Assembly: GCA_964597995.1 (NCBI GenBank)
Contig: CAZRAC010000002.1
Location: 51-64,050, forward strand
From: an uncultured Syntrophaceae bacterium
GTDB taxonomy: Bacteria > Desulfobacterota > Syntrophia > Syntrophales > UBA4778
Direction of reading: 5' to 3'
Length of the DNA stretch: 64,000 nucleotides
How positions within the stretch are numbered: position 1 is the stretch's first letter; each line of letters opens with the position of its first letter. The notes below the pieces were generated by a model that saw nothing but the letters and a program-made list of their open reading frames with translations, was not told the DNA's origin and ran no database searches. This document shows positions 41,212 through 51,056 of the stretch, in pieces. The position numbers and the translations under genes were made by a program.

Positions 41212-41563
41212 CTTCCGGTGCGCAATCGTTGCAAAATCGAAAAACGGCGATTTACAGTAAACTTTGAAGGCGCCGATACTACCATCAACCCGATATGGGT
41301 GTCCAGTTTTTAGGGAGAGTTATAGAATCGCTTCTTCGATTAGAAGCCCATCCGGGTCCGCCACCAGCGTGAACAGGCGACCTTTGAGGTGAACTCGCGC
41401 AGAATCATAGCGCAGCCTGTTTCTGCGCGAGGCGATGAGGACTAAGGCGAGCGATTCATCTCTCTCGACCTTGCATTTGTTCGCTTATGGCTGCATGCAA
41501 GTTGTCAAGCGTACAATGCACAGTGTCCTCAACCACTTACCACTCTTGGTATCATAGAAAGAG

Positions 41564-44500
41564 TTACGATTTCCAATACGAGCCGCGACGATGCACGTGT
41601 TTATGGCTAGACCACAAGTTATGAAGACTCTCCCTCAACGCAAGGGTGTCCTGATGTTTTAGGTCGCGTTCTCCCCAAAGAAGCCACACTAAGGTTTGGT
41701 GGGTATGATTTAAATAACACTTCATCAAATCGGCGCGTAAGTACAGTAAGTGGGAGCGGAACGTGTCTTCATCGGCCTTGAACTTTCGATATATTGTGGC
41801 GACACGTCCGCCTTGATCGTATAAGTCCCATTCGCCTTGTCTATTAACTAAACTTAGTTGCTCACAAATTGCTGGGGCAGGAACCGTAATGCCGCTCACC
41901 TGATTGAGTGGACTGTGGTAGCCTTCCCAAGCAAAGCTGTAAACAGGCACTTCAACAGGAATCCCCGTACTGCTATGCCTCGAAAAAGCTTTCCGTATAT
42001 CGCGCTTTACTCTACCATCTTGTTCGCGGAGGTGTGATCCGAAACGGGGAGACCAAGGAATTTCGCCTGCGTATGTGTAGTAGTCTTCCGTTGGCTCCGG
42101 GATAGCCATATTGCCTGGGTACTCGACCGTCTTAAAAGCTGCCAATAGCTTTTTGACATGACCGCGTTCCACCAGCAAGCCCCGGAGAAAAGTAAATACA
42201 CACCTTGGGTCATCCTTTGAAGACTGCTCAATGTAACCGTCTAGAAGCACCCACGGGCCATCCTGACCATCCACTTCTTTAAGATGTAGCAGATGATTGT
42301 AATTTGGAATGGGGCCATCTGTGATCCATGCCCGAGGTTCTGCAGGAGTCTTGGTGAATAAATCGGGTAACGGGGGTTGCCAAGTCTTCGCAGGTTCAGG
42401 GAAGCTGGGATCAATGTCGGCGTCAGATGAGCGTTCGCCAGCTCGCCAATCCGGTAAAGTGCCCTCGTCGAACCTAATTCCATACATTTCAAAGAAAGCT
42501 ATCCAAGAATATTTCTTCCCGTATCTGTCTGTCTTTGGGACTCCACGGCTTTCAGCTCGCCATGATGAGCCGCGGATTCTCTTGTCTATCTCGGCAAACT
42601 GACTTGACCTGTATCCCAATTGCGCGATCCTGTATTCGATTTGATGCCTAACTTTTCGATATATTGAGTTATCAAAGTCGTAGTTTCTTCTATGCGGAAT
42701 CAGCCTGCCAATGGTATAGTTTCCGAAGTCCATAAGGATTGACCCCTTGGCTTCGGCTATATCAGAGTCGCTGATTTTATCCGGTTCCAAAAATGGTGAG
42801 GGAATTTGACTGAACGTAGGTTGTAAGTGCGTTCTCTGCTCATCTGGTATGCATCCGGGAGCCAACCGGGTTGCCAGATTGATTACACCCCGGGCATAGT
42901 CCCTCATCAAGACATGGCAGGTAGCGTGCGGAGCTTTAGGAACGAACATCTCCTCTACCAATTTGCGTGCAAAGTCAGGGAGTCCCTTACGTAGCTCTTC
43001 ACCCCGAGGATCGGCCCAAAGCGACATCACAACGCCGTAACACGCCGCAAGCATACGCTCAGGTACATAAGGGTCATTTATTTCCAGTGAGTTCAGTGTC
43101 AGATCAAATAGAGCCTTTGGATTGCTGCATCCAAACCAATACAACGCACGTGTGGCATGATCACGTAGCAGACGGACTGTGCTTGTGAGGGTCCACATCA
43201 TCCACCGTGCTTTCAACTGATCCCGGGGGCTTAGAGCCTGCACCGACCGCCAGCGTTGCTCTAACCACTTTATATCTTCAAGTATATCTTCTTGCCTGCT
43301 GCGAACCCATTCCGTCCATCGGCGATCGCGTTCCGCCATCGACATTGAGCGAAGAACTTCGTTCAAGAAATCCACATTCAGGGGATGGGCTTGAGCCGCA
43401 CGGGTGGTCCAGAGCCTATAGAATAGGTCACGGTGTCCTTGCGGCTGTTGAGCAGTAAGGGTGGCTAATTGTGATACTGTCTCACTATCCAAGAACTCCT
43501 TGTCCAACCATGCCGAGTTATAAAGAGCCTTTGTCCGGAGTGGTTCGTCCAACAGGGTCCAGAGTTGCTCTCTGTATCTGCGGCGAGGCGTCAGCCCCAC
43601 AAGAGCCGTAAAGATATCAGCTGCGAGTGGATGCTGCTCTCCTACATCACCCGCAATCATTTTTGTTGCTTCCGCTTGTAACCATCTCATAAACTCATCA
43701 GACCCTGCATACTTCTCAATCAGTGCATCGGCTACGAGATGACCGGCTAAGGCATCATAAACGACAGCTATCTGATTACCACCCAAACGGGGGTCGGATA
43801 CTCGGATGAGCACACGTTCCTGTTCCAGGGCTCGGATAATGCTCTGATCCCACGGACGAACATGATCGCCTAACCGTTCGCGTAATTCATCAAGATCAAG
43901 GCTGCGCGTTTTCGCTTCCCATAAACACAAGCCGATCTTGCTAAGCACGGTGCGAATGTCAGACTCAAAGTAACGCCAGGAACGAGGCGAGAGCTGTGCA
44001 ATGCGTTCTGCTACCTGTTCCAAGTATCGCTCAAACAATGAGGTCAGTGAGCCAGGCATCGCTTCAACACCTACGAGCCGCTCACGTTTAGGATTTGTCA
44101 CCTCGCAAAACATGCGCAACGTGAGTGGATGTTGGAGAAGTTCCAATGGTAGCGCTGCATCCGATGGGTCGATCTGGTAATATTTGAAATAACGGCGCAC
44201 TGCATCATAGATGTCGTGTCCAAAGCCTGGTATCTCCAATCGTTCAACCCCATCGGGCAGCGCCTCTTTAACAAAGTCTGAACGAAGAGTGCACACCACC
44301 ACGACATATGGATACCGGGCTAGCATCTCATTCAGTGATGCAAGTTGCTGCTTCCAGTCGCGAGGATCCTCTGCTTCGTTCAAGCCGTCAAGGACGATGG
44401 GTAAACGTCTGCCCGCACGCTGACCTGCAGCGTCTACGGCAGCGACTAACGCTGCGAAACTCTCTACAGGGCGGCCGTTGATAACAAATCTGCGAGCAAG

Positions 44501-45598
44501 ATCATCAAGGGTTCCTCGGGCTGCCAGGTCACGTCCGTGGATCAGGATACCGGCAGGACGGTTCTCTACCGGGGCAGTGAGTTGGGCTGATAGGTGAGTC
44601 TTACCATATCCTGCATCAGCAACAACCGCGATCAAGCGATCCTCCAGCGCCTTGCGAAAATCATCGAGGAGCCGATTAGCAGCGAAAATATCTGCCACCA
44701 CGTTAGTGGCCCGCAAAACGACAGGACGTCGCTCTCTCCTCAATCGGCGAAGCAAGACATTCCACCCAAGATCAGGACCGCCTCGGGCAGTAAGTGCTTG
44801 ATGCACGATTTCATAATCTCCACCTGCCAAAGCGGTATGCGTCTGACCTAAGGTGTCTGCAACGAGAGTTGCGGTCACGACTAACCTACTGACCTCTTCC
44901 ACGATGTCCTTAGGCAAACTTGCCAGCTCAGTGCTGACAGCAGCAACACCATCCCGAAGCCGGTTTGTCACCGCTGTCAGATCAGACCAAGCTTCCTCCT
45001 CACCCAATGTGCGACGAAGTGAACGCTCGGCATCCACAATTTGGTGTGCTTCAGGCAGCCATCTTCCTGAAATACGCGCAACCGATTCATTATGCTTGTC
45101 GCTCAGCAAGTCCGGCGTAAGAACGAGTTCGCCGAAATAGGTACCGCGAAGGATTTCTGCGGGCCCACTGAGATGTGTTTCAACATCAGCGGCCGTCCAA
45201 AGATGGAGCCTCATGTGTGTTTGCAAACCATAGAACCATTCCTGATCACCTTCCGTCAGAGTGTGTCTTGTCCAGAGAATCCAGTCGGTCAATTCGGGAA
45301 GAATTTCTTTTGTCTTCCTGATAGCCTCCTCAATTTGTCTTCTCCGTGTATTTCCGATGGCCCGTCCACTCTGAAGGTCATACCACCTGCATTGCCAGCC
45401 ATACCAGCGCCCAGGTTCTCCCAGAGGGCACCTTGCGTGTAGTTTTAAGTGGAACTCAACCCCTGGTTGATTAGCAAGGGCGCGAAAATCACCATATTGC
45501 CCATAGTGCAGGCGAATGATTGCACGGCACAGTTGCTCGAAGTTGCGGGTTTCATCCCCAGGCAATGTCGCAAATATTTTCCAGTTCAATGCAGGCAC
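41564..45598 (-). CDS. NACHT/STAND-family NTPase with a distinct N-terminal domain and an ~880-aa C-terminal region of unknown fold
   Basis: 1344 aa, GTG start preceded by GGGAGGGAGG. Walker A is ADAGYGKT (aa 327-334, nt 44597-44620) and Walker B is IVLDGLNE (aa 401-408, nt 44375-44398). VVVVCTLRSD and LEIPGFG...YF follow in NACHT order. Confidence 0.75.
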   Translation of the reverse strand: MPALNWKIFATLPGDETRNFEQLCRAIIRLHYGQYGDFRALANQPGVEFHLKLHARCPLGEPGRWYGWQCRWYDLQSGRAIGNTRRRQIEEAIRKTKEILPELTDWILWTRHTLTEGDQEWFYGLQTHMRLHLWTAADVETHLSGPAEILRGTYFGELVLTPDLLSDKHNESVARISGRWLPEAHQIVDAERSLRRTLGEEEAWSDLTAVTNRLRDGVAAVSTELASLPKDIVEEVSRLVVTATLVADTLGQTHTALAGGDYEIVHQALTARGGPDLGWNVLLRRLRRERRPVVLRATNVVADIFAANRLLDDFRKALEDRLIAVVADAGYGKTHLSAQLTAPVENRPAGILIHGRDLAARGTLDDLARRFVINGRPVESFAALVAAVDAAGQRAGRRLPIVLDGLNEAEDPRDWKQQLASLNEMLARYPYVVVVCTLRSDFVKEALPDGVERLEIPGFGHDIYDAVRRYFKYYQIDPSDAALPLELLQHPLTLRMFCEVTNPKRERLVGVEAMPGSLTSLFERYLEQVAERIAQLSPRSWRYFESDIRTVLSKIGLCLWEAKTRSLDLDELRERLGDHVRPWDQSIIRALEQERVLIRVSDPRLGGNQIAVVYDALAGHLVADALIEKYAGSDEFMRWLQAEATKMIAGDVGEQHPLAADIFTALVGLTPRRRYREQLWTLLDEPLRTKALYNSAWLDKEFLDSETVSQLATLTAQQPQGHRDLFYRLWTTRAAQAHPLNVDFLNEVLRSMSMAERDRRWTEWVRSRQEDILEDIKWLEQRWRSVQALSPRDQLKARWMMWTLTSTVRLLRDHATRALYWFGCSNPKALFDLTLNSLEINDPYVPERMLAACYGVVMSLWADPRGEELRKGLPDFARKLVEEMFVPKAPHATCHVLMRDYARGVINLATRLAPGCIPDEQRTHLQPTFSQIPSPFLEPDKISDSDIAEAKGSILMDFGNYTIGRLIPHRRNYDFDNSIYRKVRHQIEYRIAQLGYRSSQFAEIDKRIRGSSWRAESRGVPKTDRYGKKYSWIAFFEMYGIRFDEGTLPDWRAGERSSDADIDPSFPEPAKTWQPPLPDLFTKTPAEPRAWITDGPIPNYNHLLHLKEVDGQDGPWVLLDGYIEQSSKDDPRCVFTFLRGLLVERGHVKKLLAAFKTVEYPGNMAIPEPTEDYYTYAGEIPWSPRFGSHLREQDGRVKRDIRKAFSRHSSTGIPVEVPVYSFAWEGYHSPLNQVSGITVPAPAICEQLSLVNRQGEWDLYDQGGRVATIYRKFKADEDTFRSHLLYLRADLMKCYLNHTHQTLVWLLWGERDLKHQDTLALRESLHNLWSSHKHVHRRGSYWKS

Positions 45599-45616
45599 AA
45601 CGTCCTCCCTCCCATC

Positions 45617-46030
45617 TCAAGAAGACCTGCCACGCCCGTACCCTGTATTAGGATAGTTATGGGCCGAATACACTTCTACCTTAGCACCTTTATCTAAGAG
45701 AACCTTGAGGAATGCAGAAACATCCGCCTCCTCTGTAGTAATAACTACTTTGTTGCCATCGACATCAACCTGAACGTCATAAAGTAGTTGCTCCAATTCT
45801 GCCGGACCAAGAATGTACAGATTTGCTGCTCTCAAGAGTTCCAACATTCCGTCTGTGAACCGATCTTGGGGAACTGTATTACTCTGGTTCTTGTCCGCAT
45901 CATCCTTTACCTGACCAGCAAGCTGGCTAAGCAAGTCTTTGGCTTTTTCTGCATCGCTGACTTCTTTGAAGTGCCCGATCATAACAAGATTCATGGAGTG
46001 TTCAGAGCCATAGCCCTTCCAAATCTTCAT
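45617..46030 (-). CDS. Hypothetical 137-aa protein (no family recognised), translationally coupled between the radical SAM and NACHT genes
   Basis: The ORF track starts at 46045. The ATG at 46030 is preceded by GGGAGG at 7 nt and overlaps the upstream stop (ATGA). No TM segment or signal peptide is seen. The tail is Gly/Arg/Tyr-rich (YSAHNYPNTGYGRGRSS). Confidence 0.6.
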   Translation of the reverse strand: MKIWKGYGSEHSMNLVMIGHFKEVSDAEKAKDLLSQLAGQVKDDADKNQSNTVPQDRFTDGMLELLRAANLYILGPAELEQLLYDVQVDVDGNKVVITTEEADVSAFLKVLLDKGAKVEVYSAHNYPNTGYGRGRSS

Positions 46031-46965
46031 TTTGCAACCTCCCACATTGATTCAAGCATTCTTAGAGCTTCCATTACCCCTCCCGACGCAATGGGGATAC
46101 CATGTTTATCATACGATGATCTTTTGATTGTTCCTGATGCATCGATATGAGCATATGCACGAAGCTCAGTTTCTCTGGGCAAGGGGTCCGCAATGGGCAT
46201 ACTGTCCCGACCTACTTCGCTTACAGCTATACGAATGGGGCCAGCATAAGAGTGCACCCACCTGCGCAGTGCTTGCATTGTGCTATTGTCAATACCGCTT
46301 CCCTTGTTTGTAGGGAGCTGCGGAAGTAGGAGAAACTCAGATGCACCGACTTCTGCTGCCAGCGCGATAGCTGCGTCTATTTCGGGAAGAGTGAGGCAGT
46401 TTACCAGATAATTGATGCCAAAGGGAGCACACTCACGAATCACTTCAAGCTTTTGGAGTAGTGCTGAAAAAGACCGGTTACGTATCTTCTCATATGTGGC
46501 GCCGATGCCGTCCATGCTGACGCGGATGAAATGTACATTTCCCTTTAAGGTAGCGGCCAATCGGCCATCGATGTGGTGTCCATGTGTTGTGAATGTCGCA
46601 GCCATGCCGGTGTTTTGGGTAACATGGTTGCATATATGAAGCAGGTTTTTGTACAAAGTTGGTTCACCGCCTCCGAAACCGACACCAATACACCCATTTG
46701 CATCAAGCTCGTCTAACCAATCAATTAACCGGCCCATACTAAGCATGGCCGGATTTTTGGGCGCAAAACAATGAGGACAATCAAGATCACATGCATTCGC
46801 TAACGCAATCGAGACATGGCGTGGCGCAGTGGACCACAACTCCTGAGCCACTTTAGCGTCGTCGATAAGAAGGTTCAGTCCTGTCTCGCGACTAAAAAGG
46901 AGGATGCCATCGGGGCCTGTTCGCACTTTGAACCGATGGAGCATTTTAACTATACCAGGCCGCAT
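46027..46965 (-). CDS. Radical SAM enzyme (no SPASM/twitch auxiliary Cys cluster evident)
   Basis: 312 aa with CxxxCxxC at C59/C63/C66 (ANACDLDCPHCF, nt 46768-46791) and the SAM-binding GGGEP (aa 98-102). The C-terminal half has only two isolated Cys. Confidence 0.8.
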   Translation of the reverse strand: MRPGIVKMLHRFKVRTGPDGILLFSRETGLNLLIDDAKVAQELWSTAPRHVSIALANACDLDCPHCFAPKNPAMLSMGRLIDWLDELDANGCIGVGFGGGEPTLYKNLLHICNHVTQNTGMAATFTTHGHHIDGRLAATLKGNVHFIRVSMDGIGATYEKIRNRSFSALLQKLEVIRECAPFGINYLVNCLTLPEIDAAIALAAEVGASEFLLLPQLPTNKGSGIDNSTMQALRRWVHSYAGPIRIAVSEVGRDSMPIADPLPRETELRAYAHIDASGTIKRSSYDKHGIPIASGGVMEALRMLESMWEVAK

Positions 46966-46972
46966 ATTTGTA

Positions 46973-47001
46973 ATTTTATCAAGAGTAAATCACATCGTTA
47001 A
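46973..47001 (-). promoter_or_regulatory. Putative sigma70-type promoter of the cassette (TTAACG-N17-TAAAAT)
   Basis: Read on the minus strand, the -35 TTAACG is at 47001-46996 and the -10 TAAAAT at 46978-46973, ending 7 nt before the ATG at 46965. There is no SD before that ATG, so the mRNA may be leaderless or short-leader. Confidence 0.3.
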
Positions 47002-47018
47002 TTCTAATTCTCCCTCGG

Positions 47019-47291
47019 TCAGGTCAGTGCCCGGTCATACCACATAAGTAGCTTCGGGTCTTCCTGGAGGACGTTCTCGGGAATCTTGCGGGCCACGGTG
47101 ATGATGGTGGCGTAGTCGCGCTCCTGCCAGGCCTTCTTAAATCCGGCGCGGACGGCCTCGTACTTGTCGGAGACGTACTTGAAGAGCAGGGTGAGGATGT
47201 AGTCCTTGTACTGAGAGGCGTCCATGCCGCCCCGCAGTTCGTCACAGGATTGCCAGAGGGAGGAATAGAGCTGCGATTTTTTCAGGGCCAT
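47019..47291 (-). pseudogene. hsdM: Truncated type I R-M methyltransferase (HsdM-like) remnant
   Basis: 90-aa ORF. The first about 44 aa (MALKKSQLYSSLWQSCDELRGGMDASQYKDYILTLLFKYVSDKY) match the HsdM N-terminal domain. No AdoMet-binding or NPPY/F catalytic region follows, and the ORF is far shorter than any functional HsdM. Confidence 0.65.
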
Positions 47292-47329
47292 CGGTCAGTA
47301 CCTCATCGCATCCATTGTTCTTCTACCTT

Positions 47330-47405
47330 GCGCTTCCCCACCGCCGGGAAAACTCGAGATTGAATATACTGGATTCCGCCCCGATTTTCATCGGGCTGAC
47401 GCGCC
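47330..47405. repeat. REP-like hairpin units (inverted copy of the 33.4-kb unit)
   Basis: gccccgattttcatcgggc (47378-47396) is the reverse complement of the cccgatgaaaatcgggg unit at 33412-33428, and the flanks also match (gcgtca.cccgatgaaaatcggggcgg.atc). A second small palindrome, ttccc...gggaa, lies at about 47334-47350. Confidence 0.65.
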
Positions 47406-47453: not shown

Positions 47454-48083
47454 CTATGCCTTTATGGGCTCGATGCCGGCAAGGGCCGTAACGGATTTTT
47501 CGGGCACGAGCAGGCAGGCCTCCGTCAGTCGGACGCCGAGCTGGTCGAGGCCGAGGGTCCTGTATATCCACTCCTGGTTTTGCAGCGGAAAGTCGCCGTA
47601 GCCCGCGGAAAAACGCCTTTTCGTGAGTCTGCGGTTTTCCCGGCGGAGTTTCCCTTCGAGGTACGCCATCATCCAGTCCAGGGCAAGGTCCACCACTTCG
47701 CTCGCCGCCGCGTCCAGGACCACGGCGCGGGTCATTCTGCCCCGCTCTGTATCTTTTTTGATTTCCTCCATGATGGCGGCCCCGGCGGTTGCGCCCATCA
47801 GCATGACTTCGTCCGAATGCCTGAGCAGCCCGGCGAGGCTTCTGCTCGCCAGCGTCTCGCCGTTCGCGAGTTTGATTTCCGTGTCCTTTTCCCTGTCGAT
47901 GGCCAACCGGACGGCAACACCGGCAAGGCGGATGAGGGAGAGGGCGTCGTCGATCGCACGGTCTGTTTCCTCCGCCTCGTGGGGCTTGAGGCGGGTCGTC
48001 CCTTTCCGGTATCCCAGCCGTCTGTAGATCTTTTCTTTCGGTGCCGCGAGGGTTATGGTGTCAAAAAAAAATGAACGTGCCAT
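47454..48083 (-). CDS. Stand-alone methionine synthase reactivation (AdoMet-binding, Met_synt_B12) domain protein
   Basis: 209 aa. RFSAGYGDFPLQNQEWIYRTLGLDQLGVRLTEACLLVPEKSVTALAGI matches the MetH activation-domain signature (RxxxGYxxxP ... P.KS). Confidence 0.78.
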   Translation of the reverse strand: MARSFFFDTITLAAPKEKIYRRLGYRKGTTRLKPHEAEETDRAIDDALSLIRLAGVAVRLAIDREKDTEIKLANGETLASRSLAGLLRHSDEVMLMGATAGAAIMEEIKKDTERGRMTRAVVLDAAASEVVDLALDWMMAYLEGKLRRENRRLTKRRFSAGYGDFPLQNQEWIYRTLGLDQLGVRLTEACLLVPEKSVTALAGIEPIKA

Positions 48084-48446: not shown

Positions 48447-48481
48447 ATCCCTGGGCCTTGATGGGTCTGGGGATTTTTTTT
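48447..48481 (+). terminator. Intrinsic terminator (riboswitch expression platform)
   Basis: 11-bp stem AUCCCUGGGCC / GGUCUGGGGAU (three G-U pairs) with a 6-nt loop, followed by a T8 run at 48474-48481, immediately before the first cob gene. Confidence 0.65.
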
Positions 48482-48491
48482 GGTGAGGGCG

Positions 48492-51056
48492 ATGACGGCA
48501 GGGCACGGCGGTAATGTGAGACAACTAGCTCTACTGGCGGGGGTCCCGGAAGGCGAGCTGCTCGACTTTTCGGCGAACATAAACCCCCTCGGCCCCCCCG
48601 AATGGCTCCGCACCGTCGTCAGCTCTCGCCTCCATGAGCTCTCCCGCTACCCGGACCCCGATTGCCGGGCCTTGACCGAGACCGCCGCTCGCCGTTACGG
48701 CGTAAGGCCCGGGGAGGTCATCGCCGGGAACGGCTCTTCGGAGATCATCCGCTTCATCCCCCGTGTTTTCCCGGCGGAGTGCGCCCTCATCCCCGTCCCC
48801 GCCTATGCGGATTACGCCCTGGCCGCGCAACTGGCCGGCCTCCGGGTGGAAAAGTTCTTTGCGCGGGAGGAAGACGGGTTCATCCCGGACATTGACGCAT
48901 TCGGGAAGGCGGTCGGGGAGAGGGACATCGTCTTCCTCGGCCAGCCCAACAACCCGACGGGCGCCCTGTGCGACGCCGACCGTATCCGCCGGCTCGCCGG
49001 CGAGCATCCTTCCACCCTCTTTGTCGTCGATGAGGCCTTCGCCGACTTCGTCGAGGGTATGGAAAGACTGACGCAAAAAAGGCCGCCGAACGTCCTCGTC
49101 CTCTGCTCGCTCACGAAGTTCTATGCCTTGCCGGGCCTGAGGCTGGGCCTCGCCGTCGGGGACGAGGCGGTGGTCGGCCGGCTGCGCGACGCCCTGCCGC
49201 CCTGGTCGGTGAACGCCCTCGCGCAGGCCGTGGGTGAGGAGGCCTTGAGAGATGAGGACTACGCGCAACGGACGAGGGAACTCGTGCGGCGGGAGCGGGA
49301 GAGGCTTGCCGGTTGGCTGGCGGGGATTCCCGGCCTGACCGTTTACCCCGGACAGGCGAATTTTCTCCTCTTGCGGCTGGACCGGAAGGGGACGACCGCA
49401 CCCCGCCTTGCCGAGCAGCTTCTCAAGCGGGGGATCGCCGTGCGCGTTTGCGACAATTTCGACGGGCTCGACGAGCGGTTTCTCCGGGTCGCCGTGCGGA
49501 CGGAAGAGGAAAACGCCCGTTTGGTTGATGCAGTTGCGACGGTGCTCGGCAGACCGCGGAAGGCGGTGAAAAAGAGAACACCCGCCGTGATGTTTCAGGG
49601 GACGGCATCGAATGCGGGCAAGAGCGTACTCGCGGCGGCCTTCTGCCGGATCCTCCTCCAGGACGGTTACAGCCCCGCGCCTTTTAAGGCCCAGAACATG
49701 TCGCTCAATTCCTTCGTCACCGGGGAGGGGGGAGAAATGGGACGGGCGCAGGTCGTCCAGGCCCAGGCCTGCCGCATCACTCCGGACGTGCGGATGAACC
49801 CGATCCTCCTGAAACCGAACAGCGACACGGGCGCGCAGGTCATCGTCCTGGGGAGGCCGGTGGGGAACATGGATGTAGAGACCTATATCCGTTTCAAATC
49901 AAGGGCCTTCGACACGGTTAAGGATGCCTACGATTCCCTCGCCCAAAATCACGACGTGATGGTCCTCGAGGGGGCCGGCAGCCCCGCGGAGGTGAACCTC
50001 AAGCACCACGATATCGTGAACATGCAGATGGCCCGCCATGCGGGTGCCCCCGTCCTCATCGTGGGCGACATCGACCGGGGAGGCGTCTTCGCTTCCTTTG
50101 TGGGCACGATGGAGTTACTCGCGGAATGGGAAAGGGCGTTGGTCGCGGGCTTCGTCGTCAACCGTTTTCGCGGGGATGAAAGACTCTTGCAGGACGCCCT
50201 CGATTATACAATGCGTCACACCGGCAGGCCGACCTTCGGCATCGTCCCCTATCTCCAAGACCTCGGGCTGCCGGAGGAGGATTCGGTCGCCTTCAAGGCG
50301 GCCGCCGCCGAGGCGCCTCCCGGAGGCGAGGCCGTGGAGGTGGGGCTCGTGGACCTTCCCCATATATCGAACTTTACCGATTTCGACTCCCTGCGCCTGG
50401 AGCCCGACGTCCGTCTGCGGGTCATCCGGTCGTCCCGCGACATCGGGAACCCCGACGCACTCATCATCCCCGGCAGCAAGAACGTGATCGGCGACCTGGA
50501 TTATCTCTTCCAGAACGGGCTGGCGCGGAAGGTCATGGAGCTCGCCGCCTCCGGGAAAACGGAGGTGGTGGGGATATGCGGGGGTTTTCAGATCCTGGGC
50601 GAAGGGATCGCAGACCCCTACGGGGTCGAGTCCGACCGGCGCCGGGTGAGGGGACTGGGGATTTTGCCCGTCACGACGACGCTTGAGGAGGAAAAGACCC
50701 TGGCCTGCGTCAAGGGGAGGCACGTCGAGTCCGGCCTCACCGTGCAGGGTTACGAGATCCACCACGGCCGGACCGTGGGACCGGGCCTTGTTCCCGCCGT
50801 CGAGCGGGAAGACGGGGAGATCCTGGGCGTGCGGACGGCGGAGGGCCTGGCCTGGGGGACATATCTTCACGGGATATTCGACGCCGACGATTTCCGCCGG
50901 TGGTTCGTCGACAGGCTGCGGGTGCGGCGGGGGCTGGCGCCCGCGGGGAGAACCCTTTCCCGTTACGACCTGGAGCCCGCTTTCGACCGGCTGGCAGCGG
51001 TGGTGCGCCGGAGCCTGAGGATAGGAGAAATCTACCGGCTGATGGGCCTCCGATGA
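48492..51056 (+). CDS. cobQ: Fusion protein: L-threonine-O-3-phosphate decarboxylase (CobD, class I/II aminotransferase fold) + cobyric acid synthase (CobQ/CbiP)
   Basis: A single ORF. The N-terminal about 360 aa are CobD-like (GHGGN ... NPLGPP ... NPTG ... [14 protein letters not shown]). From about nt 49590 it is CobQ-like ([13 protein letters not shown] ... GATase domain [10 protein letters not shown]). The ATG at 48492 is preferred over the ORF-track start at 48480. Confidence 0.8.

Follow-up and report, generated by a model that had tools for sequence, protein, structure and literature searches.

The analysed window comprises 64,000 nucleotides of contig CAZRAC010000002.1 from an uncultured Syntrophaceae bacterium (assembly GCA_964597995.1), and the gene considered here lies on its minus strand at positions 45617 to 46030 (stop codon included), where it encodes a protein of 137 residues. 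Judged from its sequence, this open reading frame is avap2, encoding the DUF6375 (PF19902) subunit of an Avap1-Avap2-Avs2 anti-phage operon of the KpAvs2 type; the assignment draws on the translation, the Pfam match, the homologues and an AlphaFold2 model. Upstream lies avap1 (46027 to 46965, minus strand), encoding a 312-residue radical S-adenosylmethionine (SAM) enzyme with a single CxxxCxxC motif (C59, C63, C66) and a match to PF04055 (E 2.3e-13). Downstream lies avs2 (41564 to 45598, minus strand), encoding a 1344-residue STAND NTPase with an Mrr-like nuclease at its N-terminus (Q69-C70-R71) and a long C-terminal sensor.

An operon of this composition, comprising Avap1 (radical SAM), Avap2 (DUF6375) and KpAvs2, has been described from Klebsiella pneumoniae S_15PV by Béchon et al. 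(2024, Nat Commun 15:9860; PMC11564622). KpAvs2 likewise combines an Mrr-like nuclease, a STAND NTPase and a C-terminal sensor, and the operon protects E. coli through abortive infection. KpAvs2 by itself gives weak defence and Avap2 is needed, while Avap1 is dispensable against SECphi18 and matters against T2 (PMC11564622). Co-immunoprecipitation and AlphaFold-Multimer modelling placed Avap2 on a helical bundle of KpAvs2 between the nuclease and the NTPase, and the association was present before and after infection alike. Deletion of avap2 with avap1 and avs2 present failed, from which the authors infer toxicity. Additionally, Avap1 was found to form no viperin-type nucleotide product and to possess no nucleoside triphosphate (NTP) pocket, mutation of K71 in KpAvs2 abolished defence, and the function of Avap2 was described as "still unclear" (PMC11564622). 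Our literature search found DUF6375 mentioned in Béchon et al. 2024 alone, and the later papers citing KpAvs2 do not address the accessory proteins.

Béchon et al. define Avap2 operationally as a PF19902 match beside an Avs2 homologue (within two genes) and Avap1 as a PF04055 match (PMC11564622). In the window, the PF19902 protein is separated from an Avs2 homologue by a gap of 18 nt, and the PF04055 gene belongs to the same operon. The protein resembles Avap2 of the KpAvs2 operon in family, in size and in being encoded between a radical SAM gene and one for an Avs2 whose N-terminus is an Mrr-like nuclease, and the enterobacterial Avap2 homologues (L055 and L060 in our set of loci) carry the same invariant motifs. 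Differences from the enterobacterial copies lie in overall identity (approximately 49-50%) and in a YGRGRSS tail, which the window copy possesses and the enterobacterial copies lack. The closest genome locus is that of Nitrospirae bacterium JdFR-85, whose Avap2, Avap1 and Avs2 are 74%, 63% and 70% identical to those of the window; this genome figures in Fig. 1B of Béchon et al. (PMC11564622). The gene is an ordinary further member of a published family, in a three-gene system already tested in 2024, and its interest lies in the mechanism of Avap2 and Avap1, on which the predicted docking of the Avap2 N-terminus described below bears.

The boundaries of the gene are well defined. A Shine-Dalgarno sequence, GGGAGG (46038 to 46043, minus strand), stands 7 nt ahead of the ATG at 46030-46028, and the avap1 reading frame ends GCA AAA TGA, so that its stop codon shares the tetranucleotide ATGA with the avap2 start. 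The open reading frame list holds an alternative upstream GTG at 46045; the ATG at 46030 is preferred because the homologues open with an invariant M1-K2-x-W4. The GTG start of avs2 lies 18 nt past the avap2 stop and is preceded by a second GGGAGG. A preliminary description of this DNA, made from its letters alone, had reported the 137-residue frame, the GGGAGG-N7-ATG start and the ATGA overlap, and all three are borne out by the sequence and its translation.

The same description regarded the product as an orphan of no recognisable family, which proved wrong. Residues 1-132 match positions 1-131 of the 132-position PF19902 profile with 176.7 bits (hmmscan; gathering cut-off 27.5; E 4.3e-52). 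Among 5.8 billion clustered proteins, 1070 relatives were retrieved, and DUF6375 comprised 293 clusters at 50% identity in an exhaustive HMMER scan covering 1.84 billion representatives. Among 120 relatives listed, most were of 130-137 residues, with identities of 57-97%; overall, homologues range from 42 to 97% identity and occur in many bacterial phyla and in archaea. The source genome holds a single copy (whole-genome search). There is virtually no chance that the frame is a chance or lineage-specific orphan devoid of function, a notion refuted by the Pfam match (E 4e-52), the 1070 homologues and the conserved position in the operon. A reader of sequence alone can evidently mistake a well-populated family for an orphan.

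Several DUF6375 proteins depart from the usual length. One subgroup (P0071, P0081, P0124 and P0273-P0275; 237-246 residues) consists of internal tandem duplications, in which the N-terminal MKIWxxYGSEHS is kept in the first repeat only and TDE...SAH in the last only. A search for longer forms returned four tandem-duplicated proteins only (241-246 residues). Three candidate fusions were discarded. In P0267 (450 residues), a seeming radical SAM-DUF6375 fusion, the radical SAM part aligns patchily with stretches that look out of frame, and the protein is for that reason probably a frameshifted read-through. P0276, combining DUF6375 with AAA_5 on a 1.4-kb contig, looks chimeric, and the extension of P0194, considered as an Avs2 fusion, is acidic, of low complexity and unrelated to Avs2.

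The gene order was examined at 80 loci retrieved from GTDB genomes, one per species, with neighbours identified by tblastn using the three proteins of the window. As the N-terminal motif was one of two search patterns, this sample leans towards motif-bearing members. The loci derive from Nitrospirota, Calditrichota, Bacillota, Planctomycetota, Acidobacteriota, Cyanobacteriota, Actinomycetota, Pseudomonadota, Chloroflexota, Deinococcota and Verrucomicrobiota, together with two Methanothrix-type archaea. A radical SAM gene stands immediately upstream of avap2 in 79 of the 80, the sole miss being a contig edge, and Avs2 follows immediately downstream in 77; one further locus is cut by the contig end and two (L077 and L080) lack Avs2. 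The avap1 stop and avap2 start overlap by four bases (ATGA) in 57/79 loci, and the spacing between avap2 and avs2 ranges from -8 to 55 bases. A profile search across the genus to which locus L067 (a Pseudomonas putida record) belongs, covering 401 genomes, returned four copies, all full length. The homologues are thus not found mainly outside this gene context, nor is the frame disrupted in relatives across the 80 loci. The earlier proposal of an obligatory, stoichiometric operon partner holds, given a gene order kept at almost all of these loci and, in the published homologous system, both the association of Avap2 with Avs2 and its need in defence.

The two loci without Avs2 retain the Avap1-Avap2 pair. 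In an Ignavibacteriaceae metagenome-assembled genome (L080, 6082-8756), the pair is followed by genes for a 295-residue Macro-domain protein (ThsA_Macro, E 1.6e-7) and a 127-residue Tox-ART-HYD1 ADP-ribosyltransferase (E 4.8e-9); in Ensifer aridi (L077, 6078-7411), the next genes give no recognisable partner. Both Avap2 proteins keep MK(I/M)WxGYGSEHS, TTEE and YSAH, and share a change of ELEQ to DPEQ in helix 3. From the existence of a pair without Avs2 it follows that radical SAM enzyme and DUF6375 protein may form a module that also serves other effectors.

AlphaFold2 modelling of Avap2 from a 94-sequence alignment gave a mean predicted local distance difference test score (pLDDT) of 89.8 and a predicted template modelling score of 0.82. 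Strands were assigned at 15-20, 86-91, 94-99 and 117-122, the second and third forming a hairpin, and helices at 24-48 (the longest), 60-68, 77-83 and 105-113. The order, β-α-α-α-β-β-α-β, agrees with the mixed α/β body lacking a hydrophobic segment that had been described from the sequence. The predicted body is ferredoxin-like (β-α-β-β-α-β) with a two-helix insert at 60-83. No specific fold relative emerged: Foldseek gave no match against the PDB at E below 0.05, the best of 48,161 chains compared using VIA-align reached Z 6.2 (range 5-6.2) with no functional relative nameable, a profile search of PDB sequences returned no match, and the ESM Atlas gave generic YajQ and pterin dehydratase matches below useful scores. 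The fold matches obtained were all generic ferredoxin-like proteins, including designed proteins, CutA1, Pcc1, PII and ACT.

Conservation is concentrated at the N-terminus. Residues 1-21 (MKIWxGYGSEHSxNLVMIGxF) show the highest mean top-residue frequency of the protein (0.87-0.89), and M1, W4, G8, S9, E10, H11 and S12 do not vary among 72 operon-linked sequences. Other strongly conserved positions are TT(D/E)E at 98-101, K109, G115-A116, E119 and S122-A-H124, while the helices across residues 22-75 are variable (0.44-0.51). The motif MKIWxGYGSEHS occupies codons 1-12 (45995 to 46030, minus strand). For residues 1-10, invariant as they are, the monomer model gives a pLDDT of just 54; a terminus conserved in this way yet disordered alone is typical of a segment that gains order upon binding to a partner. 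The opposite end of the protein, NTGYGRGRSS (codons 128-137; 45620 to 45649, minus strand), has a pLDDT of approximately 73 and is the least conserved segment, with a mean top-residue frequency of 0.27, and is missing or different in many homologues. This is the Gly/Arg/Tyr-rich tail that the preliminary description had pointed out.

The interaction of Avap2 with Avap1 was modelled using paired 72-row alignments, with two unrelated proteins as control partners. Three runs gave an interaction prediction score from aligned errors (ipSAE) of 0.75, 0.76 and 0.75, against 0.00 for both controls, a result classed as "supports binding"; the mark concerned was attained by 58/80 solved complexes and 2/110 mismatched pairs, counts that apply only roughly here because author-made alignments were used. 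Between runs at least 41% of contacts were shared, and the pLDDT of the partner was at least 68. On the side of Avap2, the confident interface consists of residues 1-9 only. On the side of Avap1, it comprises residues 26, 28-36, 49-50, 94, 122, 124, 145-146, 210, 245, 261 and 271, and the tightest Avap1:Avap2 pairs (31:4, 33:2, 32:3 and 29:6) describe the addition of an antiparallel strand that extends the N-terminal sheet of Avap1. Conservation is higher at the contacted positions of Avap1 than over the protein as a whole (0.83 versus 0.62; resampling P ~0.0005), an excess that comes partly from barrel-core residues conserved for other reasons. The predicted docking of Avap2 residues 1-9 on Avap1, drawn from these models together with the invariance and the low monomer pLDDT of the segment, is the new lead of the present analysis, and the pairwise prediction that the earlier description had suggested for the radical SAM enzyme comes out in favour of binding.

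Avap1 itself is modelled with a pLDDT of 93 and has a small N-terminal sheet (13-17, 20-24, 31-34) before the barrel. In the 72-row alignment its only invariant cysteines are C59, C63, C66 and C112, giving one iron-sulphur (Fe-S) motif. The closest solved relatives are SkfB (profile E 3e-18; Foldseek E 1.3e-15, query-normalised template modelling score 0.74) and SuiB, the latter also as solved together with its precursor SuiA; viperins, MoaA, anSME and PqqE rank below these two. A viperin-like reading was considered and set aside. Avap1 weakly matches the PADLOC model of prokaryotic viperins (pVips) over residues 52-160 (E 1.7e-15) and scores 41 bits against an NCBIfam viperin cut-off of 180, the match being limited to the generic radical SAM core. 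Avap1 shares with the pVips its nature as a radical SAM enzyme in an anti-phage setting; the pVips, however, lack a DUF6375 partner, and neither viperin products nor an NTP pocket were found for the published Avap1 (PMC11564622).

A parallel with peptide maturases can also be drawn. Avap1 is nearest SkfB and SuiB of the SkfA/SkfB and SuiA/SuiB systems in both sequence and fold. The N-terminus of Avap2 is predicted to bind as an added β-strand in the manner of the leader peptides of ribosomally synthesised and post-translationally modified peptides (RiPPs), and avap1 and avap2 are adjacent and translationally coupled. On the other hand, Avap2 is a folded protein of 137 residues and not a short precursor, Avap1 lacks the auxiliary-cluster cysteines of SPASM/twitch maturases, and the pair belongs to an immune operon and not to a natural-product cluster.

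The NTPase neighbour, which the preliminary description had given a generic NACHT label, is better described as Avs2. It matches PADLOC model PDLC02164 over residues 3-966 (411.6 bits, E 2e-123), whereas the NCBIfam equivalog NF041813 is matched over residues 323-914 only, with 295 bits, below its 1000-bit cut-off. As PDLC02164 fits far better than NF041813, the window protein is assigned to the accessory-dependent clade and not to the EcAvs2 equivalogs. The helical region spans approximately residues 165-320, ahead of the Walker A motif GYGKT at 330-334. NF041813 aligns from residue 323 at its own position 168, an offset which implies approximately 155 extra residues ahead of the NTPase and fits an extra helical region. 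Single-gene Avs2 proteins of the EcAvs2 type (NF041813) thus share a homologous STAND NTPase and C-terminal sensor with the window protein; the canonical protein acts alone, whereas the clade of the window has the additional N-terminal residues and needs Avap2 (PMC11564622). In an alignment of the N-terminal parts of 72 homologues, residues 165-320 contain few conserved columns. Residue 71 (45386-45388) is Arg in the window and Lys in KpAvs2; with Arg in 23/72 homologues and Lys in 49/72, R71 reads as a common natural variant.

Taken together, these data are very probably best explained by Avap2 being a subunit of a KpAvs2-type system, and probably a two-faced adaptor between Avap1 and Avs2. 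It is termed two-faced because its body would bind Avs2 and its N-terminal peptide would bind Avap1. By homology with KpAvs2, Avap2 would be permanently seated on the helical region that separates the STAND NTPase of Avs2 from its Mrr-like nuclease, would be needed for full abortive-infection defence and would probably keep the system harmless before infection. Contact with Avs2 would be made by the body, perhaps by its variable helices, on a helical region that is just as variable; the two loci that lack Avs2 fit this arrangement, as their Avap2 retains the N-terminal motif while helix 3 is changed, although with two sequences only this is a hint. The flexible, invariant peptide MKIWxGYGS would add an antiparallel strand to the N-terminal sheet of Avap1 (28-36) and touch the floor of the barrel, and the radical SAM enzyme would thereby be tethered to, or gated by, the phage sensor. 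An adaptor linking enzyme to sensor was among the roles proposed earlier, and is the best supported of them through the published co-immunoprecipitation of Avap2 with Avs2 and the complex prediction given here.

Several points weigh against this proposal. For the window copy, binding of Avap2 to Avs2 is carried over from a homologue approximately 50% identical, and searches of the family brought up no protein in which DUF6375 is naturally fused to a radical SAM domain or to Avs2. The docking on Avap1 expresses model confidence, and strand docking could partly be pattern memory; solved complexes of radical SAM enzymes with peptides exist (SuiB-SuiA, CteB and anSME). A comparison with the predicted barrel strands of Avap1 (50-53, 94-97, 122-127, 146-151, 210-215 and 245-248; AlphaFold2) places the barrel contacts 50, 94, 122, 146, 210 and 245 at the N-terminal ends of the strands. 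These contacts lie on the face opposite the Fe-S loop, and nothing therefore places the peptide beside the SAM site. Finally, defence against SECphi18 requires Avap2 but not Avap1 (PMC11564622), so the main job of Avap2 needs no Avap1. Weighing these limits, we hold it likely that Avap1 and Avap2 bind each other and doubtful that Avap2 is the substrate of Avap1.

That doubtful possibility, in which Avap2 would be a protein substrate of Avap1 modified within K2, W4, Y7, G8, S9, H11 or S12, and modified Avap2 would alter the firing of Avs2 against some phages, nonetheless draws on much of the above. The nearest solved relatives of Avap1, SkfB and SuiB, modify peptides; the predicted docking is like the β-strand binding of leader peptides; the Avap2 N-terminus is invariant across phyla and unstructured alone; and Avap1, for which neither a viperin-type product nor an NTP pocket is found, matters for some phages only, such as T2 (PMC11564622). 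Set against this are the lack in Avap1 of the auxiliary Fe-S cluster that most peptide cross-linking maturases possess, contacts at the barrel floor away from any demonstrated proximity to SAM, a linker of just ~5 residues between the docked strand and the folded body, which leaves little "core peptide", and the ability of Avap2 to function without Avap1 against SECphi18 (PMC11564622). Should Avap2 prove to be a substrate at all, the invariant N-terminus is the candidate site. The substrate role suggested in the preliminary description, with modification of the C-terminal tail, finds no support as worded and is rejected because conservation of the tail is low. A reading that joins adaptor and substrate, in which an adaptor bound to a nucleotide-binding leucine-rich repeat (NLR)-type receptor has its invariant N-terminal peptide captured, and possibly modified, by a peptide-maturase-like radical SAM enzyme that tunes or arms Avs2, strikes us as rather unlikely.

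The published failure to delete avap2 beside avap1 and avs2, read as toxicity, is compatible with the earlier suggestion of an antitoxin-like regulator. Avap2 might chiefly be a brake on Avs2, on Avap1 or on both until a phage protein is bound, with its N-terminal peptide plugging Avap1. Its presence on KpAvs2 both before and after infection (PMC11564622), the tight translational coupling that ensures co-production and the prediction of its N-terminal peptide on a conserved surface of Avap1 would all suit such a role. Yet no toxicity was reported when KpAvs2 or Avap1 was expressed on its own, and Avap2 remains bound after infection, unlike a released antitoxin (PMC11564622). As KpAvs2 alone defends weakly, Avap2 acts positively on defence and not only as a brake, and we regard a chiefly inhibitory function as unlikely. 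Still less probable, and indeed very unlikely, is that Avap2 is a small metal-binding or catalytic protein with H11, S12, N14, T99, E101, S122 and H124 gathered at one pole of the sheet. These polar residues are invariant or nearly so in 94 diverse members, strand 1 would begin on the same edge at which strands 3 and 4 end (deduced from topology, not coordinates), and CutA1 and UreE, both metal-related, are among the weak fold neighbours (Z 5-6, generic). There is, however, no standout fold match (best Z 6.2; Foldseek E > 0.05) and no sequence match to any solved protein, and the conserved cluster could equally be a surface that binds Avap1 or Avs2.

Were the N-terminal nonapeptide of Avap2 to bind, or be modified by, Avap1, this would explain why two small genes travel together in translational coupling, why Avap1-Avap2 occurs without Avs2 beside the Macro and ADP-ribosyltransferase pair in one genome, and how a bacterial NLR-like receptor comes to receive input from a radical SAM enzyme. 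Modification of a protein subunit by radical chemistry would, if real, constitute a layer of post-translational control undescribed for prokaryotic STAND/NLR immunity.

The cassette resides in an islet of approximately 6.1 kb (41236 to 47358) that carries the three genes and the remnant of a methyltransferase gene, with a guanine plus cytosine content of 0.48-0.53 compared with 0.60-0.68 in the flanks. A methionine synthase gene flanks it on one side and cobalamin-synthesis genes on the other. No Avap2 was found among 30 relatives searched, 23 of which were at least 90% complete. Contigs letter-identical to the cassette of the window were present in four metagenome studies (activated sludge, an oil facility, a biogas fermenter and one other), and the depth of the metagenome contigs was 4-8 over the cassette and 35-100 at the flanks, which corresponds to a 5-10-fold excess at the flanks; the public runs listed included no RNA data set. 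In two runs, contigs join 41235 to 47359 and so skip 6123 bases, the shorter side being 20 letters only; in a third, a contig leads from 47411 back to 41256 through 28 letters of other sequence. The 41235-47359 junction looks, if weakly, like an empty-site allele of related strains without the islet.

A consensus scan placed a promoter-like sequence, TTAACG-17-TAAAAT (46973 to 47001, minus strand), just upstream of avap1. It is the sole such site on the minus strand between the upstream gene and avap1, and none occurs from avap1 to avs2; the region as a whole contains 8 sites where 6.0 +/- 2.1 are expected by chance, a number not above chance, making this weak evidence.

Abutting the cassette, a minus-strand frame of 90 codons (47019-47291) joins an HsdM N-terminal segment (PF12161, E 3.7e-10) to the end of a PglX/type IIG methyltransferase, of which it retains the last ~48 residues (PADLOC MTase_II E 4.5e-25, PglX E 9e-23), and it reads as an internally deleted remnant of a large methyltransferase. 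In metagenome contigs this segment shows very high depth (to ~100) and many variants. Between the islet and the cobalamin genes lies a minus-strand frame of 209 codons (47454-48083) with no Pfam family at E <= 0.001. Further on, a single plus-strand frame of 858 codons (48480-51056) combines a class I/II aminotransferase (CobD-like) with CobQ-type CbiA and GATase_3 domains, and by its domain content is a fusion of two cobalamin-pathway enzymes.

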